A DNA stretch of 40,922 nt from the IMG/VR virus record IMGVR_UViG_3300020044_006443, positions 1-40,922 of that record; one strand, given 5' to 3'. Origin of the DNA: a virus. Taxonomy: Duplodnaviria; Caudoviricetes. The notes below the pieces were generated by a model that made no database searches, was not told the origin of the DNA, and saw only the letters and a list, made by a program, of their open reading frames with translations. Of this stretch, positions 4,280-40,755 are shown in pieces. Numbering within the stretch: position 1 is the first letter of the stretch; the number at the start of each line of letters is the position of its first letter. The position numbers and the translations under genes were made by a program.

Positions 4280-4345
4280 TTGACCTACCTTCAAACCCGC
4301 AGTATGAGGGTACATCAGCAACGAAGACCCGGAGTAAATAACATG
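4280..4345 (+). promoter_or_regulatory. Early promoter plus conserved leader, copy 1
   Basis: TTGACC-N17-TATGAG, then ATCAGCAACGAAGACCCGGAGTAAATAACATG. Confidence 0.7.
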
Positions 4346-4571: not shown

Positions 4572-4598
4572 ATCAGCAACACAGGAGCACATCACATG
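4572..4598 (+). promoter_or_regulatory. Conserved leader/RBS, internal copy
   Basis: ATCAGCAACACAGGAGCACATCACATG; no matching -35 seen upstream. Confidence 0.65.
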
Positions 4599-5967: not shown

Positions 5968-6028
5968 TTGCAACACCTGATTGCATCCTTTAAGGGTACC
6001 TCATCAGCAACAAGGAGCACACGACATG
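5968..6028 (+). promoter_or_regulatory. Promoter with TGCAA-N7-TTGCA palindrome plus conserved leader
   Basis: TTGCAAcacctgaTTGCAT; TAAGGG at 17-bp spacing; ATCAGCAACAAGGAGCACACGACATG. Confidence 0.75.
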
Positions 6029-7707: not shown

Positions 7708-7768
7708 TTGCACATACCCTCAAACCTCTATAGTGGGAGGGTATCAGCAACAAGGAGTACACGACATG
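7708..7768 (+). promoter_or_regulatory. Promoter plus conserved leader
   Basis: TTGCAC...TATAGTGG; TACCCTC/GAGGGTA inverted repeat; ATCAGCAACAAGGAGTACACGACATG. Confidence 0.75.
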
Positions 7769-10168: not shown

Positions 10169-10369
10169 ATGAGTATCTTGGACACCATTAACCCTTGGGG
10201 CGCAGTGCGCCGCATACGTAAAGAGTTTGAAGATGCGCAGGCAGCGCACTGGGTTGAGTACGAAAAGTGGACAGCCACGAACAACAAACTCAAGGCGCAG
10301 ATCGCTAAGGGCCACTTCCGCAATCCAAAGACAGGCCGCATTGGCCGCAAGGGAGTGACGTTTGAATGA
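10169..10369 (+). CDS. Hypothetical protein
   Basis: AGGAG RBS; C-terminal FRNPKTGR motif. Confidence 0.75.
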   Translation: MSILDTINPWGAVRRIRKEFEDAQAAHWVEYEKWTATNNKLKAQIAKGHFRNPKTGRIGRKGVTFE

Positions 10370-10608
10370 CTACCAAGGATGAACGTATCGCAGCCCTCGA
10401 CCTCGCCATTGAGCGTGGTGGGGGCATCGTGCGCTTTGCAAAGAGTATGAACGTCACGCATCAGGCCGTCTACAACTGGCGGAAGCGCGGATGGGTACCG
10501 CCCGAGCGTTCTTTGATTATCGAGACAATATTTGGTGTTGAGCGAAGTCGGCTAATGGACCCCAATCTTGTCCGCGCAGTGAGCACGCCCGCAGCACACA
10601 CTTTTTAA
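10366..10608 (+). CDS. Cro-like (YdaS-type) HTH regulator
   Basis: LDLAIERGGGIVRFAKSMNVTHQAVYNWRKRGWVPPER...LMDP; precedes the primase. Confidence 0.85.
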   Translation: MTTKDERIAALDLAIERGGGIVRFAKSMNVTHQAVYNWRKRGWVPPERSLIIETIFGVERSRLMDPNLVRAVSTPAAHTF

Positions 10609-12662: not shown

Positions 12663-12723
12663 TTGCAATGCCTAATTGCATGTGCCATTAAGGTGCATCA
12701 GCAACGAAGGAGTACACAACATG
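12663..12723 (+). promoter_or_regulatory. Promoter with TGCAA-N7-TTGCA palindrome plus conserved leader
   Basis: TTGCAAtgcctaaTTGCATGTGCCATTAAGGTGCATCAGCAACGAAGGAGTACACAACATG. Confidence 0.8.
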
Positions 12724-13032
12724 AGCACCGCATTTGCAACCATCAGCAACATCCACCCGGCCGACCGTCTGGGTGACATCAAGGCAGAGATCGCCCGCCT
12801 GTCGGAGATCTCAAAGTTCCTTGAGGCCGAACTTAAAGATCTTGGCGTCGGCGCGCACGAGGGCAACCTCTTCCGTGCCACCGTCAGCGAAGTGGCCGAG
12901 CGTTCGTCGCTCTGCCCCAAGGCTGCCGAGGCCAAGCTCCGCGAGCTGGGCGTTGACGGTCGCTGGTTCAGCAAGAACCAGAAGACCACCAAGGGCTACA
13001 CCGTCCTCAAAATTGCAGCGAGGAAGGTATAA
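12721..13032 (+). CDS. Hypothetical protein
   Basis: Starts at the leader ATG; ADRLGDIKAEIARL coiled coil followed by a beta-rich tail. Confidence 0.8.
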   Translation: MSTAFATISNIHPADRLGDIKAEIARLSEISKFLEAELKDLGVGAHEGNLFRATVSEVAERSSLCPKAAEAKLRELGVDGRWFSKNQKTTKGYTVLKIAARKV

Positions 13033-15192: not shown

Positions 15193-15786
15193 ATGGCTGC
15201 TAAAAAACAACTTATGCTGAAGAACGTCGTTCTGGCCTTCCCGAACATTGCCGAGCCGCAGGCCTTCGGAAAAGGTGAACCAGCATACGGCGCAAAATTC
15301 CCCATCGTACCCAACAGCGAACAGCACAAGGCTATCGAAGCCGCGATGCTGGAAGTTGCCAAGGAAGAGTGGGGCGATAAGGGCCCGAACATTCTCGCCA
15401 CCCTCACCGAGGACGACAAGGTCGCCTTCACCAAAAAGGTCTACAAGAACAAGACCTCCGGCGAGCCGTATCAGGGCTTCGAGGACAAGCACTACCTGTC
15501 GACACGCAACCCCAAGACCCAGCCGAGCGTTTACAACGCGTACGGTGACGACGTGGTCGGTAAGGCAGACATTGAGCGCGAGGCTTTCAGCGGTGCCGTT
15601 GTCAACGCCTCGATCGAGATCTGGGCACAGGACAGCAAGGACTGGGGCCGTCGCATCAACTGTTCGCTGCGTGGCATCATGTTGACAGGCGAAGGCGAGA
15701 ACTTCGGTGGTGGCTCAAAACCAGCATCGGCCGATGAGTTCGCCGCCTTCGCTAAGTCCAAGGCCGACGCCGAGGACATCCTGTGA
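15193..15786 (+). CDS. ssDNA-binding protein (DUF2815, T7 gp2.5-like)
   Basis: LAFPNIAEP, SGAVVNASI, RINCSLRGI..GEGENFGGG, acidic C-terminus; usual position between exonuclease and polymerase. Confidence 0.88.
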   Translation: MAAKKQLMLKNVVLAFPNIAEPQAFGKGEPAYGAKFPIVPNSEQHKAIEAAMLEVAKEEWGDKGPNILATLTEDDKVAFTKKVYKNKTSGEPYQGFEDKHYLSTRNPKTQPSVYNAYGDDVVGKADIEREAFSGAVVNASIEIWAQDSKDWGRRINCSLRGIMLTGEGENFGGGSKPASADEFAAFAKSKADAEDIL

Positions 15787-16037
15787 GCGTAATCGGCCAC
15801 AACTCCAGCGAGGAGCAACTGCGCCTCTTAATCGAGCGTGTTGAGCGTCTGGAGGAAGAAAAGAAGGGCGTTTCGGAGGACATCCGGGACGTCTACAGTG
15901 AGGCCAAGGCCGTTGGCTTCGACCCGAAGATCATGCGTCAAATCGTCCGCCTGCGGAAGATGACAAAGGATGATCGGGCGGAGATGGAGGCCATACTGGA
16001 GACCTACAAAAAGGCTCTTGGCATGGATCTGCTCTAA
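15783..16037 (+). CDS. gapR: GapR-like nucleoid-associated protein (DUF2312)
   Basis: QLRLLIERVERLEEEKKGVSEDIRDVYSEAKAVGFDPKIMRQIVRLRK...EAILETYKKALGM. Confidence 0.92.
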   Translation: MSVIGHNSSEEQLRLLIERVERLEEEKKGVSEDIRDVYSEAKAVGFDPKIMRQIVRLRKMTKDDRAEMEAILETYKKALGMDLL

Positions 16038-16046
16038 CTGTATAAG
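16018..16046 (+). promoter_or_regulatory. Putative sigma70-like promoter for the structured RNA
   Basis: TTGGCA(16018-16023)-N17-TATAAG(16041-16046). Confidence 0.45.
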
Positions 16047-16049
16047 ATT

Positions 16050-16098
16050 GGTGCGTTGGTCTTTTATCCACCCTTTAGGGCCAACGCACCTTCTTTCT
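16050..16098 (+). terminator. Hairpin with U-rich tail (terminator/attenuator candidate)
   Basis: GGTGCGTTGGTC / GGCCAACGCACC followed by TTCTTTCT; the loop is long (17 nt). Confidence 0.45.
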
Positions 16099-16170
16099 GG
16101 CGAGCCGCGCGCGGGTGCGGGTACTCCTGCGTTGCTGATACACGAAGCGCGCGGCTCACCTGAAAGAAGG
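16089..16170 (+). ncRNA. Putative antisense/riboregulator RNA complementary to the conserved leaders
   Basis: 24-bp stem (16089-16112 with 16147-16170, 22/24 paired); loop contains GTACTCCTGCGTTGCTGATACAC, the reverse complement of GTGTATCAGCAACGCAGGAGTAC. Confidence 0.65.
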
Positions 16171-16179
16171 AGTATCAGC

Positions 16180-16476
16180 ATGAGTAAGTTAACAATCCCA
16201 CAAATCCGCGAAGAAGTGCAGCAGCTCACTGCTGAAAGCACGCAGTTGGCGCGCCGGCAGATCCAGATCAACGCACGCATAGACGCCTTGATGCAGGAGA
16301 CGTACCGCCGCAGCTACACACGCGCGCCTACCACTAGCCGCCGCGTTACGGCCGCCGTTCGCGCCTCAGTGCGCGGGATGGCCGCCTGCGAACCAGACGC
16401 CTCGCACCAAGAGATTGCGACTGCCCACGGCATCAACATCGGCCGCGTCAGCGAAATCCTGCACGGCAAGCGATGA
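16180..16476 (+). CDS. Coiled-coil plus C-terminal HTH protein
   Basis: AAGGAG RBS, ATG at 16180; PDASHQEIATAHGINIGRVSEILHGKR. Confidence 0.8.
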   Translation: MSKLTIPQIREEVQQLTAESTQLARRQIQINARIDALMQETYRRSYTRAPTTSRRVTAAVRASVRGMAACEPDASHQEIATAHGINIGRVSEILHGKR

Positions 16477-18440
16477 GCACGCTCTGGCTCGACCTCGAAA
16501 CCTACAGCCCTGTGCCTATCAAGCACGGGGCGCATCGCTACGCCGAGGAGGCTGAGGTGCTGTTGGTGGCTATCGCAGTAGACGACCAGCCCACCGACGT
16601 GTGGGACACACAGTTCCGGCCCACGTGGAAGCGCGACCTCCAGTCTCTGATTGGCGCAGCCGAGCGCGTCGTCATCCACAACAGCGCCTTCGATCGCACA
16701 GTCCTGCACCACCAAGGCGTGCACGTGCCCGTGGACAAGGTCGAGGACACCATGATCATGGCGTTGGCGCACAGCCTACCTGCGTCGCTGGGCACGCTCT
16801 GCGACGTTCTGGACGTCCCGCAAGATAAATCTAAAGACAAAACCGGCAGACGGTTTATACAGCTATTCACGAAGCCGTGTCCGAAGAACTGGAAGATCCG
16901 GCGCGCCAACATGGGAACCCATCCGGATGAGTGGACCGCCTTCATCGAATACGCCCGCCTCGATGTGGACGCGATGCGAAACCTACACGGACGAGTGCCG
17001 CATTGGAACAATTCACATAGTGAGCGCTACCTTTGGCGACTTGACCAAGGAGTTAATGACCGTGGTGTCGCCGTCGATGTGGACCTCGCTAAGTCAGCAA
17101 TCCGAGCTTTTCGACGAGCTTCTGGATCTCTGGCCGCTCGTGCAGCCAGTCTAACCGGCGGGCAGGTTTCATCCACGACGCAGCGCGAAAAGCTGTTGAC
17201 GTACCTAAAGGACGATCGCGGCTTTGACACCGACGACCTGACCAAGGCCACCGTCGAGACGGCACTGAAGGGCGAACTCGACCCGAAGGTGCGAGAGTTG
17301 CTGGAGATCCGCCAGCAGGCCTCGGCCACCTCCCCTGCCAAGTATCAAGCGTTGCTTGACGCTACGTCACAGGACGGCCGCCTGCGCGGGACGATACAGT
17401 TCTGCGGCGCGGGGCGTACAGGCCGTGACGCGGGCCGGATATTCCAGCCGCAGAACCTGCCCCGATCGCCCGACTGGTTCGACGGTGACGTGCAGGAGGC
17501 CACCATCGCCGCCTTCAAGGCCGACTGCGAAGATCTCATTTACGACAACGTCAGCGAGCGCTGCTCTTTCGCCGTGCGCGGGTGTCTGGTCGCCGCCAAG
17601 GGCAAGAAGCTGGTCATCGCCGACCTGTCCAACATCGAGGGGCGCGTACTGGCTTGGATGGCCGGCGAGGAGTGGAAGATCGAGGCCTTTAAGGCTTACG
17701 ATCGCGGCGAGGGCGCGGACTTGTACAAGGTCACCGCCGGGCGCATCCTCGGAAAGGATCCGTTCGACGTGACGAAGGGCGAGCGCCAGACGCAGGGTAA
17801 GGTGCCTGAGCTGGCCGGAGGTTATGGCGGCGGCCTCGGTGCCTACCGCAAGATGGGCGGCGCGGTGTTCGACGCGATGGACGACGACGCCATCATGGAA
17901 ATCGTGCAGGCGTGGCGCAAGGCGCACCCTGCGACGAAGCGCTTCTGGTACGACGTCGAGGGCGCGGCGCGCGCCGCCGTGCGTACCGAGGGCGAGAGCT
18001 TCGCCGTGCGCGGCGAGATGGTGCGCTTCGACAGCATGCTCGGCCCAGACAAGGTTAGGTACGTGCGCTGCCGCCTGCCCTCTGGGCGGTACCTGTGCTA
18101 CCGCAGCATGCACGTCGACGAGGACGGCAAGCTGCAATATGAGGGTGTGAACCAGTTCACGCGCAAGTGGGAGCTACAGGAGACGTACTACGGCAAGCTG
18201 GTCGAGAACATCGTTCAGGCCGTGGCGCGCGACGTGTTCATGACGGGCATGCGCCGCGCCGAGGAGAACGACTATCCCGTCGTTCTGCGCGTGCACGATG
18301 AGCTTGTGTGCGAGGTGCCGAACCACAAGGGCTACGACGCCGACGTGCTGGCGACAATGATGTCAACGAACCCAAGCTGGTCGATAGGCCTGCCCCTGTC
18401 GGCGGCGGGCTTTGAGGCTCTGAGATATAGGAAGGAATAA
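16473..18440 (+). CDS. Family A DNA polymerase with 3'-5' exonuclease
   Basis: Exo motifs DLET, HNSAFD, YARLDV; QPQNLPR; motif A DLSNIEGR; motif B GKVPELAGGYG; motif C VHDEL. Confidence 0.96.
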   Translation: MSTLWLDLETYSPVPIKHGAHRYAEEAEVLLVAIAVDDQPTDVWDTQFRPTWKRDLQSLIGAAERVVIHNSAFDRTVLHHQGVHVPVDKVEDTMIMALAHSLPASLGTLCDVLDVPQDKSKDKTGRRFIQLFTKPCPKNWKIRRANMGTHPDEWTAFIEYARLDVDAMRNLHGRVPHWNNSHSERYLWRLDQGVNDRGVAVDVDLAKSAIRAFRRASGSLAARAASLTGGQVSSTTQREKLLTYLKDDRGFDTDDLTKATVETALKGELDPKVRELLEIRQQASATSPAKYQALLDATSQDGRLRGTIQFCGAGRTGRDAGRIFQPQNLPRSPDWFDGDVQEATIAAFKADCEDLIYDNVSERCSFAVRGCLVAAKGKKLVIADLSNIEGRVLAWMAGEEWKIEAFKAYDRGEGADLYKVTAGRILGKDPFDVTKGERQTQGKVPELAGGYGGGLGAYRKMGGAVFDAMDDDAIMEIVQAWRKAHPATKRFWYDVEGAARAAVRTEGESFAVRGEMVRFDSMLGPDKVRYVRCRLPSGRYLCYRSMHVDEDGKLQYEGVNQFTRKWELQETYYGKLVENIVQAVARDVFMTGMRRAEENDYPVVLRVHDELVCEVPNHKGYDADVLATMMSTNPSWSIGLPLSAAGFEALRYRKE

Positions 18441-18931: not shown

Positions 18932-19221
18932 CGCCCGCGGGCAAGTTACAGGATCACCTGAAGCACGTCGTACAGAAGAGTGGGGGTCAGTACCGTAAGG
19001 TGCGCTGGGAGGGCCGCAGGGGCTGCCCAGACTGCTTTGTGTGGTGGACGTGGCCCAAGGCGGCCTTCATTGAGATCAAGGCCGACGGCGACCGCGTCAG
19101 CGGGCACCAGCAGCGGGAGATTGAGCGCATGAGAAACGACGGTTTTCCGGTCTTTATCGCCCGGTCGATAGAAGAAATCGACGAAATTGTAGAAAAAGTG
19201 CGAAAGGGTATTGCAACCTGA
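18928..19221 (+). CDS. VRR-NUC domain nuclease
   Basis: GRRGCPD, FIEIK, SGHQQREIERM; upstream of the SNF2 helicase. Confidence 0.88.
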   Translation: MTPAGKLQDHLKHVVQKSGGQYRKVRWEGRRGCPDCFVWWTWPKAAFIEIKADGDRVSGHQQREIERMRNDGFPVFIARSIEEIDEIVEKVRKGIAT

Positions 19222-19271
19222 TGTTGCATGTGCCATTGGGGTGCATCAGCAACGAAGGAGTACACGACATG
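19211..19271 (+). promoter_or_regulatory. Promoter with TGCAA-N7-TTGCA palindrome plus conserved leader
   Basis: TTGCAAcctgatgTTGCATGTGCCATTGGGGTGCATCAGCAACGAAGGAGTACACGACATG; nearly identical to 12663-12723. Confidence 0.8.
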
Positions 19272-26134: not shown

Positions 26135-27181
26135 TTATGGTTTCTTGTCGCCAATAAAACCACTCAAAGCAGCTAGAATGGCGGCGATGTCAGACCCCGT
26201 ACTCGTTTTCGCCGTGTCGGCGCTGCCTATCGGCGATATACCATAGGACCTGTCCGCACTCGGAACGCCAGTGGCGACGCCCTTGAAGGTGGCCATCATT
26301 TTGTCGAGTTGCTCCTGATCATAGCCTTGTTGACGCAGGAAGTCAGCGTAGGCCACATCGAGGTTCTTCTGACCCTGCTGCTGTTGCAGCGCGCCAATGT
26401 TACCCAACGCGCCCGCGCCGGTGAGGCCGAGGGTCTGTGCCTGCTCGCCGAGGTTCGACAGAGCGCCAGCGGCCGCAAGTTGCTGCTGTGTCTGCGACTG
26501 AGCCATATCGCCGGCCGTGCCGGCAAGGGTGCCGAAGCGTGACAAGTCGGTGCCTGCAAGCCCTGCGGCTTCAGAGTATCCAGACTGGAGAGCCTTCGTC
26601 TGCTGCGCGAGGATGTCGGCGCTGACGTCGCGAACGGCGCGTGAGGTGTCGGTCATCATGCCCGAGGGCGTGCCCGCGCCATCGCGGCCACCGAAGCCGA
26701 GCTGGCCCGCTTGGATGTACCGACCCTCGATCGCAGGCATAAGGTTTTCGGTAAGATTGCGCGTGCCCATCTCGGCAATGCGGTTGGTGACGGCAGCATT
26801 GTACGGGTTCATGTACTGGTTGATGTTCGCCACGGATGTCTGGCCCGCCTGCGACAGGTACGGCTGCGCGGTGTTTAACGCGCCCGGACCGGCTGCGGCG
26901 GCCTTTGCGGCGGTTTCGGCCTGACTAAGATAAGGTTGATACACGCCAGCCGCCGTGTCGGTTAGCGTAAACGATTTGTTCTGCGGTGCGGTAAATTCCG
27001 CGACGCGCGGCATAGGCGCTTTTACGTAGTCACGGGAGGATATGGCCTTCTGCCCCGCCAGAATGTCCATCGCGTAGTTGGTGTACCACTCAGGCAGCAC
27101 CTGCTGCTTGGTCATATCCGTTAGTGCCGAGCCTTGCGGTATCGGTTTGGCCCCCTCGGCTGTAAATGTTGTGGTAGTCAT
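26135..27181 (-). CDS. Putative DNA pilot/ejection protein
   Basis: Q/A/G-rich; INQYMNPY, LGNIGALQQQQGQKNLDVAYADF; C-terminal hydrophobic helix. Confidence 0.75.
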   Translation of the reverse strand: MTTTTFTAEGAKPIPQGSALTDMTKQQVLPEWYTNYAMDILAGQKAISSRDYVKAPMPRVAEFTAPQNKSFTLTDTAAGVYQPYLSQAETAAKAAAAGPGALNTAQPYLSQAGQTSVANINQYMNPYNAAVTNRIAEMGTRNLTENLMPAIEGRYIQAGQLGFGGRDGAGTPSGMMTDTSRAVRDVSADILAQQTKALQSGYSEAAGLAGTDLSRFGTLAGTAGDMAQSQTQQQLAAAGALSNLGEQAQTLGLTGAGALGNIGALQQQQGQKNLDVAYADFLRQQGYDQEQLDKMMATFKGVATGVPSADRSYGISPIGSADTAKTSTGSDIAAILAALSGFIGDKKP

Positions 27182-29787
27182 TAAACGCGTCCTCCAGACA
27201 AATACGCTTCGGGGTTCTTGGCATTAGCACTAAAGCGGCCCTTTGCCAACTTCTTGCCCTTGTGTTTACGAACTTTAACCCGAAGGTCATCTAACTTCTT
27301 TGCGCCGGCCTTACTCGATCCGTCACCTAACAGGGCGACAGTCTCGGCGTCGATGACATACTCACCGTCGGACAGTACCGCAGGAATGTCGTCGCTACGC
27401 CCAGTGCCGGGGCCGTTAACTGCAAATTCAGTGCGCAGCGACCGGCCTCCGCGCTTTGCGGAGAATGCGCCACCCTTGGCCATGCCGGGCGTTGTGGCAG
27501 GCGTGGCAGGCGTGGCAGGCGCGTAGTCGAAGAAGCTAAGCTCAGGCCGTGTGCCGTAAGTCAACCAGTCTACGTCGCCCATCGCGCGCGGTGTGCGGGT
27601 CGCGCCGATATTGCCGAGGCCGAGGCCGCCTGCGGCAGGCAGCTTGGCCGTGTATACGGAGCCCAGACCGCCCGCGCCGACGCCAGTGCCGCCGTATGTG
27701 CCCGTTTGACCTGTGCCACCGCCACCAACATTGCCGACTGCGGCAGCCGCGAGAGCTGCAAGGCGCAGGGCTTCTGCGATCTTCTGCCGCTCTTCTTCCT
27801 TCTTCTTCTTCTCGTCTTCCTCGGCCTTCTTTTTAGCTGCCTCTTCGGCAGCCAGCTCTTCAGCAGTTTTTGTGGTACCGCCACCACCGCCGCCGCCACC
27901 GCCTTTTCCTTTATTACCCTCCGCGAGAATTTCAGCTTCCTTCCTCAGCCGCTCTTCTTCGGCGAGTTTGTCTGCTGCTTCCTGCTTCAGCCGCTCTTCT
28001 TCTTCCTTCCGCTTCCGCTCTGCCTCTTCGGCAGCCAGCTCTTCAGCAGTTTTTGCGCCACCGCCACCAGTAGTTACACCACCAGTTCCACCAGTTCCTT
28101 TATCACCCAGTGCGAGAATTTCAGCAGCCTTGCGCGCTTCCTCATCTGCTGCTGCTTTAGCGGCTGCGTCTCGTGCGGCTTTATCTGCTGCGTCTTGTGC
28201 GGCTTTGTCTGCTGCGTCTTGTGCGGCTTTGTCTGCTGCGTCTGCTGCTTCCTTCTTCAACCGCTCTTCTTCTTCTTTGAGCCTCCGCTCTTCGGCAGCC
28301 GCGCGCTCGGCCTCTGAAAGACCGCCACCGCCGGTAGGTACGTTAGCCGTTCCGCCTGTTGTGTCAGCGCCTGTGACGGTAATTTTAGCTTTGGCTGCTG
28401 CCTCTGCTGCTACCTTGTCGGCCGCCTCTTCAGCAGCCTTGCGCGCGGCCTCGTCGGCTGCTGTTTTGGTTGCTGCGTCTGCGGCTGCTTTGTCTGCTGC
28501 TGCTTTGAGCGCCGCCTCTTCTTCTTTGAGCCTCCGCTCTTCGGCAGCCGCGCGCTCGGCCTCTGAAAGACCGCCACCGCCGGTAGGTACGTTAGCCGTT
28601 CCGCCTGTTGTCGTACCACCTGTGACGTTAATACGCGCTGCCTCGTCGGCTGCTGCTTGGGTAGCCTTGATTGCGGCTTCGGCTTCTTCAGCCACCCGCT
28701 CAGCCTCTGAAAGCCCACCACCGCCGCCAGTATTTACGTTAGCCGTTCCGGTCGTTCCTTTAGCGCCCGTTGCGACGATATCAGCAGCCTTACGTGCATC
28801 TTCAGCAGCCTTGAGTGCTTTGTCTGCTGCCGAAAGTCCACCGCCGCCAATATTTAAGTTAGCCGATCCTACCGCTGGAGTAGATACTACGTTAATAAGC
28901 GAGGGGTCGATGTCTACACCAGTGCCGGTGCCAGTGGAGGCGCGCGCGCCGACGCCCAACGCTTTAGTTATGTCTGGCGACGCGTAACTAAGCGCGCCAG
29001 AGGCAGCGCCGCTAAGGAGTGAGCTCTTCAAGTCCTGCCCCGTTACAAGACCGCCGACCGTGGAGCCGATGCCAGTGCCTACTGCGGTGGCAAGTCTTGG
29101 CACAAGAGCTGTACCAAATGTATTTCCGGCTTCAAACATAGGCCCAAGGACTTGGCCACCGGCGGCAGACAGGCCGCCCATCACCGCGCCTTTAAGAGGG
29201 TCGTCGCCCTTAAAAGCCGCGCCCGCGCCACCGAAGGCCGCGCCTGCGGCGATGGTGCCGAGTACGTTCAACCCCGGTATCGCCATAACTGCGAGGGGCA
29301 GGGCGGTGCCGATGACATCGCGTATAACCGAACCTTCGTTATAATCAGTCGGTCCTGAAATCCAGCGCTCACCAAAATAGGACGAACCATCGGGGTTGGT
29401 TGGACCTTGTTCAAGTTGTTGAATGTCCCACGACGCTTTCTGGCCCTTCGTGGCGCTCAGGTTCTGCGCAAACCTAACGGCTTCCGCAGCAGCCTCGGGC
29501 CCCTCGCCGCTGAACAGGACGTTGCCCTTGCGATCTGTGACGCGAATGGGGCCGCCTCGGTATTCAAAAAGGTTCGACCCTTGGCCCGCGATGTCGAAGC
29601 CTGTGCCCGCACCTAAGTTGTCCATCGGGGCCGATAAGTATGTACCCGGAGTTGGCGTATTCGCTGCAATCCTGCGGGCTTCGCGCTGCTCAGGCGTCAA
29701 GGCCGCACCGCCCGTGACGGGTCCGCCGTTGGCGTACGCGGGTACGATCGTTTCCAAATGGTTGCTGAAGCCGGGGATGTAGTTCAT
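27181..29787 (-). CDS. Putative ejection protein with glycine zippers, six strand-Gly-helix repeats and a GPGTGRSDDIPAVLSDGEYV domain
   Basis: 868-aa ORF, translationally coupled on both sides; C-terminal motif of the kind found in tape-measure/internal virion proteins. Confidence 0.8.
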   Translation of the reverse strand: MNYIPGFSNHLETIVPAYANGGPVTGGAALTPEQREARRIAANTPTPGTYLSAPMDNLGAGTGFDIAGQGSNLFEYRGGPIRVTDRKGNVLFSGEGPEAAAEAVRFAQNLSATKGQKASWDIQQLEQGPTNPDGSSYFGERWISGPTDYNEGSVIRDVIGTALPLAVMAIPGLNVLGTIAAGAAFGGAGAAFKGDDPLKGAVMGGLSAAGGQVLGPMFEAGNTFGTALVPRLATAVGTGIGSTVGGLVTGQDLKSSLLSGAASGALSYASPDITKALGVGARASTGTGTGVDIDPSLINVVSTPAVGSANLNIGGGGLSAADKALKAAEDARKAADIVATGAKGTTGTANVNTGGGGGLSEAERVAEEAEAAIKATQAAADEAARINVTGGTTTGGTANVPTGGGGLSEAERAAAEERRLKEEEAALKAAADKAAADAATKTAADEAARKAAEEAADKVAAEAAAKAKITVTGADTTGGTANVPTGGGGLSEAERAAAEERRLKEEEERLKKEAADAADKAAQDAADKAAQDAADKAARDAAAKAAADEEARKAAEILALGDKGTGGTGGVTTGGGGAKTAEELAAEEAERKRKEEEERLKQEAADKLAEEERLRKEAEILAEGNKGKGGGGGGGGGTTKTAEELAAEEAAKKKAEEDEKKKKEEERQKIAEALRLAALAAAAVGNVGGGGTGQTGTYGGTGVGAGGLGSVYTAKLPAAGGLGLGNIGATRTPRAMGDVDWLTYGTRPELSFFDYAPATPATPATTPGMAKGGAFSAKRGGRSLRTEFAVNGPGTGRSDDIPAVLSDGEYVIDAETVALLGDGSSKAGAKKLDDLRVKVRKHKGKKLAKGRFSANAKNPEAYLSGGRV
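28268..28611. repeat. 95-bp exact direct repeat (28268-28362 and 28517-28611) within a coding repeat region
   Basis: Both copies encode TTGGTANVPTGGGGLSEAERAAAEERRLKEEE; 21-bp tandem units (DAADKAAQ) lie at about 28170-28245. Confidence 0.9.
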
Positions 29788-35487: not shown

Positions 35488-35696
35488 CGATCCGCTTTGT
35501 TATCCAGTTTATCTTCAATCCGGCGGAGGTGCATCATGACCTCGTCGAACTTCTTATCAATGGCGTTGAACCTCTCTTCACCGAAGCCAAGACGCGCCTC
35601 CATGAGGGTGAGCCTGTTGTTTAGGTTTACCCAGACGGTTATCAAGCCGCCGATGAAGGCCAGCACGGTGACGACGGTGTTGATGTCGAAGTCCAT
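35484..35696 (-). CDS. Single-TM coiled-coil protein (holin or i-spanin-like)
   Basis: N-terminal TM helix, then LTLMEARL...LRRIEDKLDNKADR. Confidence 0.7.
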   Translation of the reverse strand: MDFDINTVVTVLAFIGGLITVWVNLNNRLTLMEARLGFGEERFNAIDKKFDEVMMHLRRIEDKLDNKADR

Positions 35697-36058
35697 TATT
35701 TCAGGTTCCGCAGCTTGTATATGGTGGTCAGATACGTGTCTGTGACACCGTCAACCAAATTGCCCACTGCGCGGTTGCCCTTGCAGATATCCTCGTGGTG
35801 CTCCTCGATCCAGTCCGCGTCAGCCTCTAGGAGCTTCAGCACGTCACGCTCAGTCACCTCTGGGGCGGGTATGTTGCCGATGAGGCTGAACGCGCCTTGG
35901 TAGGCTTCCACGAGCTTGTCGATTGCGTCAATGACGTCGTCGTAGAAGTCGCCCAGTGACATGTGTTTCGCGAAGCTGCCGTCGCCCTTTGCTCGCCAGT
36001 GCTCGAAGTGGGCTACGTTGCGTGCATAGAAGACGCGGCTGATAAGTTGTTCGATCAT
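35696..36058 (-). CDS. Ferritin/Dps-like four-helix protein (DUF5856-like)
   Basis: AHFEHW, FAKHMSLGDFYD, DKLVEAYQG, TIYKLRNLK. Confidence 0.8.
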   Translation of the reverse strand: MIEQLISRVFYARNVAHFEHWRAKGDGSFAKHMSLGDFYDDVIDAIDKLVEAYQGAFSLIGNIPAPEVTERDVLKLLEADADWIEEHHEDICKGNRAVGNLVDGVTDTYLTTIYKLRNLK

Positions 36059-36068
36059 ACGTTCACCT

Positions 36069-36794
36069 TCAGTGTTTCGTTACGTCCACCATCGCCGCGT
36101 AGGTGCCTGAGAAGCAGTACGCGCCGAAGTGGCCCAGTTCGCACCACGGCGCGGCCCAAACCGTTCCGCCGTGTTTACGGTATTCGTGGCAAAAATGATA
36201 GTCCTCTGATAACAACTTGCCGTCTTCTACCAAGACGCGGAAAAAGTCGTGAACCTCTTCCTCGGGTGGGATGCTCGCGCCGCCATTGGTGTAAGTCTGC
36301 GTGTGCTCTGCAAGGCCTTCGAATACGTCGCGCCGGATTAACATGAAGCCGGTGCCGATGTGCTCGACTTGAAACGGCTCGTTTGGGCTAACCATGCCGT
36401 GGTCGGGCAGTGTATTGAGGTTGAAGATGCCAGTCAGCGCGGCGAGGTTCGGGTGGTTAAGCACCGCCCCCTGCCGCACGCGGTCCCAGTTGATACCCTT
36501 CATGGGCACCGGACCGCCGATGATACCCTTGTCGGCCTTGATCATCAGCGCGACATCATTTGCGCGGAAGCGCTGATCCGCGTCGATGAAGAGCAGGTGG
36601 GTGGCGTCGGGGATACGCAGGAAGTGGTGCGCAATAGTGTTACGACCGCGCTGGATCAGGCTCTCGTTGCCGAGGAAGATGCAGGTCAACTGGATGTCGT
36701 ACTGCATGCACGCCTCTTTGAGCGCCAGCAACGACTGCGTGTACTCGGTACACATCATGCCCCCGTAGCAGGGCGTGCCGATGACGAGATGCAT
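36069..36794 (-). CDS. GT-A fold glycosyltransferase
   Basis: IGTPCYGG, ESLIQRGRN, THLLFIDAD (DxD), IGTGFMLIRR, LSEDYHFC, LGHFG; start at ATG 36794 with GGAG RBS. Confidence 0.88.
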   Translation of the reverse strand: MHLVIGTPCYGGMMCTEYTQSLLALKEACMQYDIQLTCIFLGNESLIQRGRNTIAHHFLRIPDATHLLFIDADQRFRANDVALMIKADKGIIGGPVPMKGINWDRVRQGAVLNHPNLAALTGIFNLNTLPDHGMVSPNEPFQVEHIGTGFMLIRRDVFEGLAEHTQTYTNGGASIPPEEEVHDFFRVLVEDGKLLSEDYHFCHEYRKHGGTVWAAPWCELGHFGAYCFSGTYAAMVDVTKH

Positions 36795-37618
36795 CAATCG
36801 GTCTCCGCCGTGAGTTGCGGCACGTTGGTCAGGCTCTGCTTGTCGAACAGGCTGAAGCCGCGATACTGCGCGAACTTCTCTGGGTCGCTCGCCCACTTGT
36901 CAGCGCAAGCCTCCAGCCACTGGAGCGTCATTTCATGCGCCGGGGCCTTGCCTTGGCTAATCAGCTCGTTTTCAAGGGAGAGATACGCAAAGACTTCAGC
37001 CTGCGCCTGCGCGGCGTTGATGCCGAGGTCAAACAGGTAAATCATGTTGCCTTCGTCGATTACGCCTTGACGGCTGCGCGCCGCGTTCAATGCCTGCTTC
37101 ATGCAGGTCATGATGTGGTAGCGTGCCTCTTCAAGCTCGTAATCGGCTTCGGTGATCTCGGTCTTGCCCACCTTCTCCAACAACTGCCTGTGCTGATTGA
37201 CGAAGAAGTTCATCTTGCGGATCGCGCCGTTGACGTGGTTCTGCGTGCTCTCGAGTTGATACTGAAGCTCGATAATCTCGACGTCCAGCATCTCAATGTC
37301 GAAGGCGTCCTCGGCTGTCTCCAGTTCCGCCTGCTTGCGTTTCAGCTCAACCTGCTTCTTGCGCATGCCGATGTACGCCTCTTGCAGCGCCGAGCGTGTC
37401 CGGTCGATCTCGGCCAGCGTGTGCTTGATGGAACGTATCGGCGTAATCGCCGTCACGTCGAGTGACACTTGCATAAATTGCGAGTGGCTCTTGTAGAAGT
37501 TGCTGGTGTCTCGCACCACCGCAGGCATCCGCTCTTGGATGTTCTGCAACATGGTGCCGTATTCGGGTTTAGTAACTGGTAGGGCGGTGGTGAAGTCCAC
37601 CAATACTATATCGTTCAT
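36794..37618 (-). CDS. Coiled-coil protein adjacent to the repeat proteins
   Basis: AAGGAG RBS before the ATG at 37618; long heptad region. Confidence 0.8.
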   Translation of the reverse strand: MNDIVLVDFTTALPVTKPEYGTMLQNIQERMPAVVRDTSNFYKSHSQFMQVSLDVTAITPIRSIKHTLAEIDRTRSALQEAYIGMRKKQVELKRKQAELETAEDAFDIEMLDVEIIELQYQLESTQNHVNGAIRKMNFFVNQHRQLLEKVGKTEITEADYELEEARYHIMTCMKQALNAARSRQGVIDEGNMIYLFDLGINAAQAQAEVFAYLSLENELISQGKAPAHEMTLQWLEACADKWASDPEKFAQYRGFSLFDKQSLTNVPQLTAETD

Positions 37619-37652
37619 TACAGTGCTCCTTGTGTTGAACGGGTTGGGGAAA

Positions 37653-38648
37653 TCAGAGGCCGCCATGCCCGCTGGAGCAAGCGGCGACCTGCGAAGTACC
37701 AGCAAGCAGGTCTCCAAAATCGAGCGCGTTACCTGTGGTTGCGATAGTGACATAGTTTATAGTGTTGTTGCTCAAGCCCCCTCCAACGACCCCACGAGTT
37801 TCAGAGGAGCACGCAGCCGCACCGAACGTAGAGTAGAGCAAAGTGCCAAAATTCAAAGTGTTTCCTGTGGTCGCGATAGTGACGTATTGGATAGTTGTTT
37901 GGGACGCTGACCCCCCAAAAAATACAGCGCGGGTGCTACTCGCACAAGCCGCAGGCCCCTCGGAGGCCGCCGATAAATCACCAAAATCGAGCGCGTCACC
38001 TGTGGTTGCGATGGTCACGTAATCTATCACATTTTGCGCACTTGGGCTTGCATAACCGCCTGCAAAAAGACCGCGAGTGGTATTAGCGGTGCCGCATAGA
38101 TACTCGCGGGCGACCGTGACACCGCCAAAATTTACGGCGTTACCTGTAGTAGCAATCGTAACGTAATCTATACGGCTGGTGTATACGTTGCTGGCGGTGT
38201 TGCCTGACCCAAAAAGACCGCGAGTGCTGTTGGAGCAGCCCCCGAGTTGTGTTCGTGCCAATGTCAAGTTTCCAAAACTAATAGCGTTTCCAGTAGTCTG
38301 TATCGTAACATAATCGATTGCTGCGGTAGGGCCGCTGCTGCCGCCCCCAAACAAACCCCGTGTGGAGGAAGCACAAGAACCCATTTGACTTCTAGCGGAA
38401 GTAAGATTGCCAAAGTTGAGGGCGTTGCCGGTTGAGGTTATAGTGATGTACTGGATCGACGAGAAGCCGGTAAACACGCCAGCAAACAACCCCCTCGGTG
38501 CTTGGATACCCGCAATCGGCCACAGACCCTGCTTCGTCCAGTACGCCGCCTCGGCCAGTGACCACACGCCAGAAGCCGCGCCGTCCTGAAGCGGGCCAGC
38601 GGGGATAACAGGTGTCTTGCGGATAAGATTTCCGGGCCAGTTACTCAT
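37653..38648 (-). CDS. Six-repeat kelch-like propeller protein 3 (putative tail/receptor-binding)
   Basis: Six repeats of RGLFGGG..IDYVTIATTGNA..FG.L...R...AACS; ends HGGL. Confidence 0.75.
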   Translation of the reverse strand: MSNWPGNLIRKTPVIPAGPLQDGAASGVWSLAEAAYWTKQGLWPIAGIQAPRGLFAGVFTGFSSIQYITITSTGNALNFGNLTSARSQMGSCASSTRGLFGGGSSGPTAAIDYVTIQTTGNAISFGNLTLARTQLGGCSNSTRGLFGSGNTASNVYTSRIDYVTIATTGNAVNFGGVTVAREYLCGTANTTRGLFAGGYASPSAQNVIDYVTIATTGDALDFGDLSAASEGPAACASSTRAVFFGGSASQTTIQYVTIATTGNTLNFGTLLYSTFGAAACSSETRGVVGGGLSNNTINYVTIATTGNALDFGDLLAGTSQVAACSSGHGGL

Positions 38649-39589
38649 GAAAGTCCTCCATGCCCGTTAGAGCATCCCGCATCGTACTGCCTAGCAACTG
38701 TCAGATCACCAAAATAAATGGCGTTGCCGACGGTGGCTATTGTTACGAAACTGATCTTTGCCGTACTCGCACCACCGTAAGAGGCACAAGCCCTTGTGGG
38801 GCTTGCACAAGCCGCGCCGTCTTCTGTGTCTAGCGGCAAATCACCAAAATCTGTGGCGTTCCCGGTGGTCGCGATAGTGATGTAGTCAATGACGTTCTGC
38901 GATGCTCCCGAAGCGCCGCCAAAAAACAAGCCCGTAGTTGCGTTAGAAGCTCCGGCCACCGACCCACGCGCGACCGTCAAGTTCCCAAAACTAACAGCAT
39001 TTCCGGTCGTTGCTATGGTAACGTAATCGATCACACTGGTCGTAGAGGTGCCTCCCCCGAAAACCCCTCGCGTGGGGGAAGCGCACGCCCCTGTGGCCCT
39101 TCGCGTCACAGACAAAGAACCAAAGTTGGTTGCGTTCCCGGTCGTCGCTATGGTCACGTAATCAATGACACTAGTGTTTGACGTAAAGTTTCCGGTCATG
39201 CCGCCGCCAAACAAACCACGAGTTGAGGAGGAGCACCCGGAAACGTATGTTCGCGCGACTGTAAGGTTGCCAAAAGTTGTGGCATTTCCTGCGGTTGCAA
39301 TCGTGACATAGTAAATTGCGCTCTGATCCGTGCTGCCGGTGGTTCCACCGGCAAAAAGCCCACGCGTGCTGGATGAACACGAAGCAAGATAAGTCCTAGC
39401 TGCGGTCAGGCTCCCGAAACTGGTAGCATTTCCCGCCGAAGATATGTTTATCTGATCGACTACGTTAAGCGCCGCGCCCCCCGCGCTGCCTCCACCAAAC
39501 AACCCTGTTACCGGCGGCGACTGCCAGTTACCAGCCGCGACCGCCTGAAGCTGCTGCGTGAGGGTCCAGACACCAGAATAGTTAGGCAT
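38645..39589 (-). CDS. Six-repeat kelch-like propeller protein 2
   Basis: Same six repeats; start at ATG 39589 with GGAGG RBS; ends HGGLS. Confidence 0.75.
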   Translation of the reverse strand: MPNYSGVWTLTQQLQAVAAGNWQSPPVTGLFGGGSAGGAALNVVDQINISSAGNATSFGSLTAARTYLASCSSSTRGLFAGGTTGSTDQSAIYYVTIATAGNATTFGNLTVARTYVSGCSSSTRGLFGGGMTGNFTSNTSVIDYVTIATTGNATNFGSLSVTRRATGACASPTRGVFGGGTSTTSVIDYVTIATTGNAVSFGNLTVARGSVAGASNATTGLFFGGASGASQNVIDYITIATTGNATDFGDLPLDTEDGAACASPTRACASYGGASTAKISFVTIATVGNAIYFGDLTVARQYDAGCSNGHGGLS

Positions 39590-40755
39590 TAGGCTAGTCC
39601 TCCGTGTGCGCTTGAGCAAGCAGCGACGCCCACCCTAGCAGACGTAAGATTTCCAAAACTTATCGAATTGCCGGTACTAGCAATCGTGATGTAACTGATA
39701 GCGCTGGAGGGGCCGCTACCCCCACCAAAAACTCCACGCGTTGCGTCAGCGCAACCAGCAAGACCGTTTCGCGCAGGAGATAAAGATCCGAAGGACACCG
39801 CGTTTCCGGTCGTGGCGATAGTAATGTAATCAATGGTCGTTCCATTACGAGCGCTTCCGCCTCCCGCAAAAACCCCACGTGTGCTATTCGAGCAGGCCGC
39901 AAGCAACTGTCCAGCAACCGTTAAATTCCCAAAGGAGGCGCTGTCGCCAGTAGTAGCTATAGTTATGAAAGTTATAGCGGACGTTACTGAAGAAGTATCA
40001 CCCCCGCCAAATACACCTCGCGTCGGCGACGCACAGCCAGCTAGATCCGCTGTCCCATTTATTAACGACCCAAAAGATATGGCGTTGCCTGCGCTGGCGA
40101 GAGTTACATAGTCCATCGTGGCTGAATAACCAAAAAGGTAACCACCGGCGAACACGCCGCGTGTCGCTGAAGAACACGCCGCGAATTCTTGGGCGGCCCG
40201 CGTAAGATCGCCAAAAAATACTGAGTTGCCTGTGGTAGCTATAGTTACGTAGTTTATGGCGCTAACACTACTACCACCACCAGCAAAAAGCCCCCGACTT
40301 GCGGAAGAACAACTAGCCAAATAGGTAACAGCAGCCGAAAGCTGCCCAAAAGACAACGCGTTTCCTAATGTGGGTATAGAAATATAATCGATAGTGTTAG
40401 ATCCACCCCCGCCGCCAAAGAGACCACGCGCCACTGCTGGTGTCACTGACCCGCTCGGACCGCCCGCAGGCGAGGGTCCGTAAGTGTTTAGCGCCCAGAC
40501 GTTAAACGTGTACGCGGTGCCATTGGTCAGGCCAGACACGGTGATTGGCGAAGTAGACCCGGTCGCGCCGATACCACCGGGATTGCTCCCAACAGTATAG
40601 CCCGTGATAGCCGATCCGCCCACGTTACTCGGAGCGGTGAAGCTGACAGACGCAGACTGATCCCCAGCGGACGCCGCAACGCTAGTAGGTGCGTTCGGGG
40701 CTTGCAGCGGGTTAAAGCCTACGCCGAGTATGCCGCCTTGATAGCGTTTCGCCAT
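39589..40755 (-). CDS. Fibronectin type III domain plus six-repeat propeller protein 1
   Basis: PNAPTSV...VSFTAP..GGSAITGYTV...VSGLTNGTAYTFNVWALN (FN3), then six repeats; ends HGGLA. Confidence 0.8.
   Translation of the reverse strand: MAKRYQGGILGVGFNPLQAPNAPTSVAASAGDQSASVSFTAPSNVGGSAITGYTVGSNPGGIGATGSTSPITVSGLTNGTAYTFNVWALNTYGPSPAGGPSGSVTPAVARGLFGGGGGSNTIDYISIPTLGNALSFGQLSAAVTYLASCSSASRGLFAGGGSSVSAINYVTIATTGNSVFFGDLTRAAQEFAACSSATRGVFAGGYLFGYSATMDYVTLASAGNAISFGSLINGTADLAGCASPTRGVFGGGDTSSVTSAITFITIATTGDSASFGNLTVAGQLLAACSNSTRGVFAGGGSARNGTTIDYITIATTGNAVSFGSLSPARNGLAGCADATRGVFGGGSGPSSAISYITIASTGNSISFGNLTSARVGVAACSSAHGGLA

Follow-up and report, generated by a model that had tools for sequence, protein, structure and literature searches.

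The C4 RNA of phages P1 and P7 has a defined fold and arises by processing of a longer transcript; specificity is set by one of its exposed stretches, a ribosome site is covered by another, and a few matched changes in RNA and target define specificity groups (PMC5320573, in excerpt). Peculiar to C4, according to the same excerpt, are its three stem-loops, a cut by RNase P, the targeting of its own operon and the maintenance of lysogeny. The CI RNA of satellite phage P4 is processed from the untranslated leader of a replication-gene unit and pairs within that transcript; it acts on seqA and seqC of its own transcript via premature termination, and no dispersed 5′-end regulon figures in the excerpt of PMC4825925. 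That excerpt also describes IsrK of Gifsy-1, a single phage RNA which is both a closed mRNA leader and a trans-acting small RNA; it activates its own long isoform and, there too, no shared leader regulon appears. RNA-OUT of IS10, about 60-70 nt long, pairs with the 5′ translation-initiation region of RNA-IN and blocks ribosomes; it is cis-encoded, perfectly complementary over 35 nt to a single target, and its inhibition grows with copy number (PMC5006887, in excerpt). The phage antisense RNAs named in a survey of phage sRNAs have single targets (PMC12197685, in excerpt), PMC11053796 (in excerpt) gives context only, and in the literature covered, itself partly in excerpt, the known phage antisense RNAs control one operon each, mostly in temperate phages.

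We report here on a hairpin element of a phage genome that resembles each of these RNAs in part. Unlike C4, it has one long stem and one bipartite loop, a predicted processing by RNase III, and at least six dispersed predicted targets. It has neither the three stem-loops of C4 nor distinct loops for a′ and b′, the neighbouring hairpin 1 being unrelated, and its stem runs on for 12 bp below a mismatch, which argues against a tRNA-like end for RNase P. As in C4, the loop would cover ribosome sites and co-varies with its targets, at the level of sequence. As with P4 CI, the element is part of the leader of a replication unit, and a complement to it lies further down that transcript, whereas no match to CI was found in sequence or model. 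The cis encoding of RNA-OUT is not found here: the targets lie on the same strand as the element and match it at 21/23 positions at best, so that it would be trans-encoded, imperfect and directed at many messages. An Rfam scan gave 0 matches at gathering score in the window and, over 15900-16350, only chance miRNA and lncRNA matches (E 0.2-5), in keeping with the first-pass annotation, which had seen no sequence resemblance to P1/P7 c4 or P4 CI RNA. Literature searches, with most subscription papers and bioRxiv supplements outside their scope, found no description of the element. It would work like C4 or P4 CI RNA, outside Rfam; what sets it apart from the described systems is the lack of a model match, of the three-loop fold, of a temperate context or of cis encoding.

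The genome and its relatives

The window, that is, the whole stretch of 40,922 bases analysed, is an entire virus record. It is probably a fragment, as near-complete relatives measure 56-60 kb; direct terminal repeats were found in 2 of the 5 near-complete relatives. Its rightward genes encode small unknown proteins, a Cro-like protein, a primase-helicase, DUF2800, an Enc34-type SSB, GapR, PolA, VRR-NUC and an SNF2 helicase, and its leftward genes a terminase and virion proteins, one of them with a weak DNA-ejection match. Adjoining the latter is a gene for an 868-aa protein (27181-29787, minus strand) with Ala/Lys/Glu-rich and Gly-rich repeat blocks. Also on the minus strand, four neighbouring genes (36794-40755) are made of repeats of about 45 residues (16 copies; three match phrog_19111), and a small gene among the late genes (35696-36058) matches phrog_858, a starvation-inducible regulator.

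Among cultured phages, Caulobacter phage RW has the closest PolA (57%). This kinship, together with the presence of GapR, suggests that the host is probably alphaproteobacterial. A search for the SSB in 185,579 prokaryote genomes returned only two MAG scaffolds and one 28% match, with no close relative in isolate genomes. Relatives were gathered via PolA, SSB and GapR. Tyrosine integrase (PF00589), resolvase (PF00239) and S24 repressor (PF00717) domains are absent from all five near-complete relatives, and no CI-type repressor was found among them. The element would therefore lie outside any temperate lysogeny or immunity region of the kind that holds C4 and P4 CI; immunity in the prophage sense, a possible form of one of the roles first suggested for it, is not supported by this gene content, and a non-integrating life style is likely.

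Table 1. The element, its neighbours and its predicted targets in the window
Feature	Coordinates	Strand	Remarks
Target 1	4280..4345	+	promoter TTGACC, seed 4314, Shine-Dalgarno, ATG 4343; -25.5 kcal/mol
Target 2	4572..4598	+	internal leader directly after stop codon, no -35; ATG 4596; -29.8 kcal/mol
Target 3	5968..6028	+	promoter, seed 6003, ATG 6026; -26.7 kcal/mol
Target 4	7708..7768	+	promoter, seed 7743, ATG 7766; -31.4 kcal/mol
Target 5	12663..12723	+	promoter, seed 12697, ATG 12721; heads DUF2800-SSB-gapR unit; -33.2 kcal/mol
Extra seed copy	12742..12750	+	inside the 12721 coding region, 21 nt in; kept in three close relatives
gapR-like gene	15783..16037	+	PF10073, E 1.6e-34; last codons contain the -35 of the element's inferred promoter
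Inferred sigma70-type promoter, TTGGCA-17-TATAAG	16018..16046	+	inferred start G16053
Hairpin 1	16050..16090	+	14 bp, C-rich loop; fold kept, sequence variable
Hairpin 2	16089..16170	+	24-bp stem; A/U-richer lower half pairs with Shine-Dalgarno, upper half G-C-rich
GG/CC doublet and invariant mismatch C16101.A16158	16099..16101	+	predicted RNase III cuts 16100/16101 and 16160/16161
Guide loop, 34 nt	16113..16146	+	anti-Shine-Dalgarno CUCCU 16124-16128; seed GUUGCUGAU 16131-16139
Own downstream ribosome site	16167..16182	+	AAGGAG partly in stem; spacer complementary to loop 16133-16141; ATG 16180
Optional small gene, weak C-terminal HTH match	16180..16476	+	phrog_23243 and phrog_1468 weak; overlaps polA start
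Family A DNA polymerase	16473..18440	+	PF00476, PF01612
Target 6	19211..19271	+	promoter, seed 19245, ATG 19269; heads SNF2 helicase unit; -34.5 kcal/mol

A conserved hairpin with a probable promoter of its own

Of 99 elements, 84 have a TATA motif no more than 16 nt from the gapR stop; among these 84, a TTG stands 17 nt upstream of it in 76, and a pyrimidine-to-purine step (-1 to +1) six nt past the -10 in 72. Given this conservation the element probably has its own promoter, although an E. coli consensus scan of the window did not pick it up, and the claim that the RNA is made in the replication operon was not upheld. As to the strand, G-U pairs in the stem number 36 against 5 A-C, which points to a plus-strand RNA, and a minus-strand reading has no ATG past GGAG and no TTG at -35, as had been remarked before. 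The RNA-run data consist of assembled contigs only, from five holders, in which strand, ends and level are unreadable, and nothing was inferred from them: in run X1 one contig covers 12713-16034, another starts at polA and none lies over the element, and in run X4 a contig spans the element, late genes being covered too.

The 24-bp stem and 34-nt loop of the first-pass annotation were recovered (arms 16089-16112 and 16147-16170, 22/24 positions paired, or 92%, with 34 nt between). The fold of 16050-16200 has a z-score of -5.5, and 0 of 200 shuffles were as stable. Besides the probable promoter and the mid-stem mismatch discussed below, two parts had been overlooked. The element begins near 16050 with hairpin 1, possibly a weak terminator or 5′ stabiliser; a terminator scan made no call there, and the U-tract is poor. 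The second part is the AAGG of the next gene's Shine-Dalgarno, which is buried in the 3′ arm of the stem and costs a computed 8-11 kcal/mol to open. It serves whichever gene follows: the small HTH gene (missing from several relatives), some other insertion, or polA directly. This position (16180-16476 in the window, and the corresponding place in relatives) is a hot spot for insertions, and all of its occupants use the hairpin-buried ribosome site.

The loop also complements this ribosome site of its own. At least 8 nt of Watson-Crick pairing were found in 45 of 80 distinct elements, compared with about 0.5 of 80 in shuffles, through the seed half or the anti-Shine-Dalgarno half depending on the lineage, and the loop tail GATAC(AC) co-varies with that site and not with promoters. 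An intramolecular pseudoknot was ruled out, since by our estimate the 6-nt linker is too short to span 24 bp. As this pairing is, on the same estimate, sterically impossible in the intact stem, it would imply action in trans. For hairpin 1, we considered whether its loop is a second guide for the primase ribosome site and rejected the idea: in 45 comparisons cognate pairs did not rise above non-cognate ones, and a 12-nt complement (hairpin 1 loop, L025:9188-9250, with the primase ribosome site, L025:3750) is confined to L025. A kissing contact of the same loop with the G-rich part of loop 2 can be seen by eye in some lineages and is absent elsewhere.

The element is present in 99 of 103 distinct regions following a gapR stop, a count that leaves out L015, whose gapR is truncated, and regions cut by contig ends. 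In L015 (6672-6882) hairpin 1 is mostly deleted and hairpin 2 is intact; the undeleted form resembles L063, and the deletion could be an assembly artefact. The hairpin is missing from four regions: L055 (which is Caulobacter phage RW), L117, L132 and L356. In three of the hairpin-less regions there are few promoter leaders, which are not shared and are too few to count. Phage RW has two hairpins before polA (L055:11905-12003), the second of which pairs over the ribosome site, with neither a large loop nor a shared leader. A model built on 44 stems found a single copy in the window and no comparable match in 57 other loci, mostly of unrelated gapR-bearing phages; blastn of the element against 50,697 GenBank phages returned one 23-nt chance match, and a stem-pattern scan of 11 of 64 parts gave mostly noise.

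In agreement with the stem-loop RNA first proposed, compensatory changes were seen at 16 of 21 stem pairs among the 44 sequences. None of 500 shuffles equalled this number and slid controls gave 3-5. The sequences being related, this count and those given below overstate the independent events, which are about five.

The loop co-varies with leaders of dispersed genes

The 23-mer opposite the loop matches 21/23 positions at both 12693 and 19241, as had been counted before, with 0 chance matches expected, and the leaders listed with them as close matches (4572, 6003, 7743 and, in its 5′ half, 4314) all hold an exact ATCAGCAAC core. Exact copies of ATCAGCAAC lie on the plus strand at 4314, 4572, 6003, 7743, 12697, 12742 and 19245, the one at 12742 being new relative to the first-pass annotation; the only minus-strand copy is that of the loop. 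The expected number was 0.38, and 8 were reached in 0 of 100 shuffles. Six of the plus-strand copies precede a Shine-Dalgarno and start codon, and the remaining one, at 12742-12750, is possibly a second binding site. The targets lie 3-12 kb from the element, on the same strand. Raw duplex energy does not single them out: the leaders at 19241, 12693 and 7741 rank 4th, 6th and 12th among stretches of the window. Of the six transcription units first described, five keep an inferred promoter, and the site at 4572 has none; it follows a stop codon and is internal. Pairing from the +1 through the Shine-Dalgarno is backed by the co-variation described below, except that the first four bases of the 23-mer precede the inferred +1 and at most 17/19 positions could pair.

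Across leaders, the seed lies 34-35 nt after the TTG, is preceded by a pyrimidine and mostly begins with A. From this fixed distance and the Y-1/A+1 step, the message probably begins with the seed.

Seeds next to a Shine-Dalgarno fit the loop type of the same phage in 133 of 147 cases for TCAGCAAC, 6 of 7 for TCAACAAC and 18 of 18 for CCAACAAC (134 loci, distinct contexts). In L043-45 the first base is changed in both loop and leaders; in L130 the first base is changed and, in two of its leaders, the tenth too. A loop with one extra base predicted ATCAAGCAA leaders, which were then found, two in L232 and one each in L338, L339 and L343. L441 is a loop variant, with no leader within the stretch examined. 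On a quick SSB+GapR tree each seed type falls in a lineage of its own, and the common type persists in the sister of the CCAACAAC clade. These matched changes, a one-base insertion among them, answer to the antisense role proposed by the first-pass annotation. When six loops were compared, the cognate leader was the best partner for all six with the seed alone, and for three over 20 nt. No wobble enrichment was found among leader substitutions, which are not mostly wobble-compatible.

The leaders are unstructured, the spacing from seed to Shine-Dalgarno is variable, and promoter-less copies occur after stop codons or small hairpins. All three features favour RNA pairing over a DNA site. These comparisons, together with the G-U over A-C bias of the plus strand, lend strong support to pairing of the plus-strand loop with the leader and Shine-Dalgarno that phage messages from scattered loci have in common.

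Predicted processing by RNase III

Opening of the T7 R1.1 and lambda N leaders by RNase III releases translation, and the hairpins excised from them are, to our knowledge, not known as regulators; the excised loop of the present element, unlike those, would be a guide. Common to all three is a long stem with a central irregularity, which in the T7 and lambda leaders is opened by RNase III (PMC8708148, in excerpt). In 80 distinct stems, gathered with a script that looked for a mid-stem mismatch, the latter is C.A in 58, U.U in 21 and C.U in 1; both its sides vary yet remain unpaired. A centred GG/CC doublet lies below it in 76 of the 80, position D is A-U or U-A in 64 and D′ is U-A in 78, and together they form a twofold-symmetric centred pattern, UC-N-GG-N-GA / UC-N-CC-N-GA. 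For E. coli, the excerpt of Altuvia et al. (PMC6212723) gives a substrate of 22 bp with G-C at A/A′ and a strong A-U preference at D/D′. Stems were scored with counts from that source, which are E. coli rules applied to a phage of a probably alphaproteobacterial host.

With this matrix, the predicted register scores best in 37 of 44 stems. Pair-order shuffles scored as high or higher in 20 to 977 of 2000 cases in ten stems (590 for the window), and the best register of the ACCAACAAC clade differs from the predicted one. A mismatch at position B is uncommon in the E. coli sites (C-A in 5 of 85, same excerpt), and the J/J′ preference for G is not followed here. The predicted products are a 60-nt hairpin (16101-16160, -32 kcal/mol, 2-nt 3′ overhang) and a nearly unstructured message from 16161; the duplex left after the cuts has 9 A/U-rich bp (-13 kcal/mol). 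We conclude with moderate confidence that the mismatch beside the GG/CC doublet would fit the E. coli rules. The composition of the stem, with a G-C fraction of 0.85 in the upper and 0.44 in the lower part of the 80 stems, would also fit cropping by RNase III.

Repression in trans could do without RNase III if the active RNA were the leader left uncut, or a transcript that ended early or was trimmed in some other way, and the mismatch were a protein site or protected the stem. The seed is already open in the uncut fold (computed opening cost 0.86 kcal/mol), a buried Shine-Dalgarno would favour Rho termination, as in the transcripts controlled by P4 CI (PMC4825925, in excerpt), and the significance reached with the E. 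coli matrix is modest. Such a route, however, leaves the translation of polA unexplained, together with the symmetric pattern and the split of the stem into G-C-rich and A/U-richer parts, and we think it unlikely.

Proposed mechanism and alternatives

The reading that we prefer, cropping by RNase III and then repression in trans, is as follows. Host RNA polymerase would initiate at G16053, and the AAGG of the Shine-Dalgarno is computed to be hidden by the 24-bp stem. RNase III cuts flanking the GG/CC doublet would free the ribosome site of the polA unit and release the 60-nt, G-C-clamped hairpin. Its loop, as the co-variation suggests, would pair with +1 to +9 and the Shine-Dalgarno of the five promoter-proximal leaders, internal leaders and its own downstream ribosome site being further partners, and the hairpin would thereby block ribosome loading on non-structural leaders. 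Since one RNA would be made per activated polA message, its accumulation could serve as a dose or time counter. Rising RNA would damp the first genes of all barcoded rightward units, including those for SSB, helicase and its own, and perhaps whole units by polarity; a phage that arrived later with a matching seed type would be silenced by it as well. We lean slightly towards this whole chain (own promoter, RNase III cropping and loop-guided block of other non-structural messages), and we consider it likely that trans repression occurs by one route or the other, cropped or uncut. The element would be a general brake on the non-structural side. The early-to-middle switch offered by the first-pass annotation fits poorly, because the replication units, DUF2800-SSB-gapR (12697) and helicase (19245), are themselves among the targets.

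Early leaders might, conversely, act on the element: by binding the loop of the nascent polA message they would turn polA translation on or change its processing, so that polA would be made only while early genes are active. The loop does sit in a stem that buries the Shine-Dalgarno whatever gene comes next, it also complements its own ribosome site, and IsrK shows that a closed leader in a phage can be activated in trans (PMC4825925, in excerpt). The leader's complement, however, has no overlap with the stem, so that binding would displace no strand. G-C pairs make up 85% of the upper stem, a loop of 25-42 nt, the range observed, takes a 17-bp duplex unstrained (partly an estimate), and the triggers would in any case have their ribosome sites blocked by the pairing. 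This sensing role appears quite unlikely to us.

The loop might also cap 5′ ends against 5′-end-dependent decay, or keep messages in store. Pairing at the 5′ end hinders RppH and RNase J, and the invariant seed corresponds exactly to the inferred first nine bases; yet in every loop examined a pyrimidine anti-Shine-Dalgarno tract adjoins the seed, and internal leaders occur. We hold protection to be very improbable. That the 9-mer is a DNA-level motif, i.e. a protein site or promoter element, with the copy in the loop being such a site in inverted orientation or a signal for primase and with co-variation driven by a change of protein, is hardly tenable: a protein site would also predict co-variation of all copies, and the distance to the -35 is constant in 122 leaders, but the lone inverted copy always lies in the loop of a covarying plus-strand hairpin, with an anti-Shine-Dalgarno at variable spacing, and the insertion variant, the promoter-less copies tied to ribosome sites and the G-U bias speak against it.

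The element is real and conserved, with unusually good support from natural compensatory variants, and the function, loop-guided repression in trans, is what we infer from them. If true, a single RNA and a 5′ barcode common to its targets would suffice to coordinate a dispersed gene class, without any repressor protein or sigma factor; the conserved start-associated leaders of many phage genomes would gain a testable function; and a non-integrating phage would have a means of timing its programme or of excluding its kin. With the seed variants found in nature (ATCAGCAAC, ACCAACAAC, ATCAAGCAA), compensatory mutants are already to hand, and these might double as orthogonal parts for translation control in alphaproteobacteria. 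More speculatively, and with more doubt than confidence, one may picture a lytic lineage with a microRNA-like route, in which a single RNase III cut switches on polA and frees a loop-guided repressor of messages with a 9-nt barcode, orthogonal barcode types being RNA-only exclusion groups.

Leaders with particular features

A seed with a mismatch to the loop, ATCAACAAC, was found in 5 of 122 promoter-linked leaders of loci with a ATCAGCAAC-type loop, and in two more in G002. In some phages it is the rightward promoters furthest upstream that carry ATCAACAAC despite a ATCAGCAAC-fitting loop (L332:8994, L332:10018, L021:573-2026, L059:1850 and L107:469); they may be targets that are weakened or escape.

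Over the -35 and spacer of three leader promoters of the window (5968-5990, 12663-12685 and 19211-19233) lies an inverted repeat, TGCAA-N7-TTGCA, which is common in relatives and absent at 4280 and 7708. It is a candidate operator for the Cro-like protein (10366-10608). Promoter-less leaders, for their part, often follow a small GGGGG-loop-CCCCC hairpin with no U-tract (L334:15381, L116:173, L064:298 and others), and are possibly processed, 5′-stabilised message ends.
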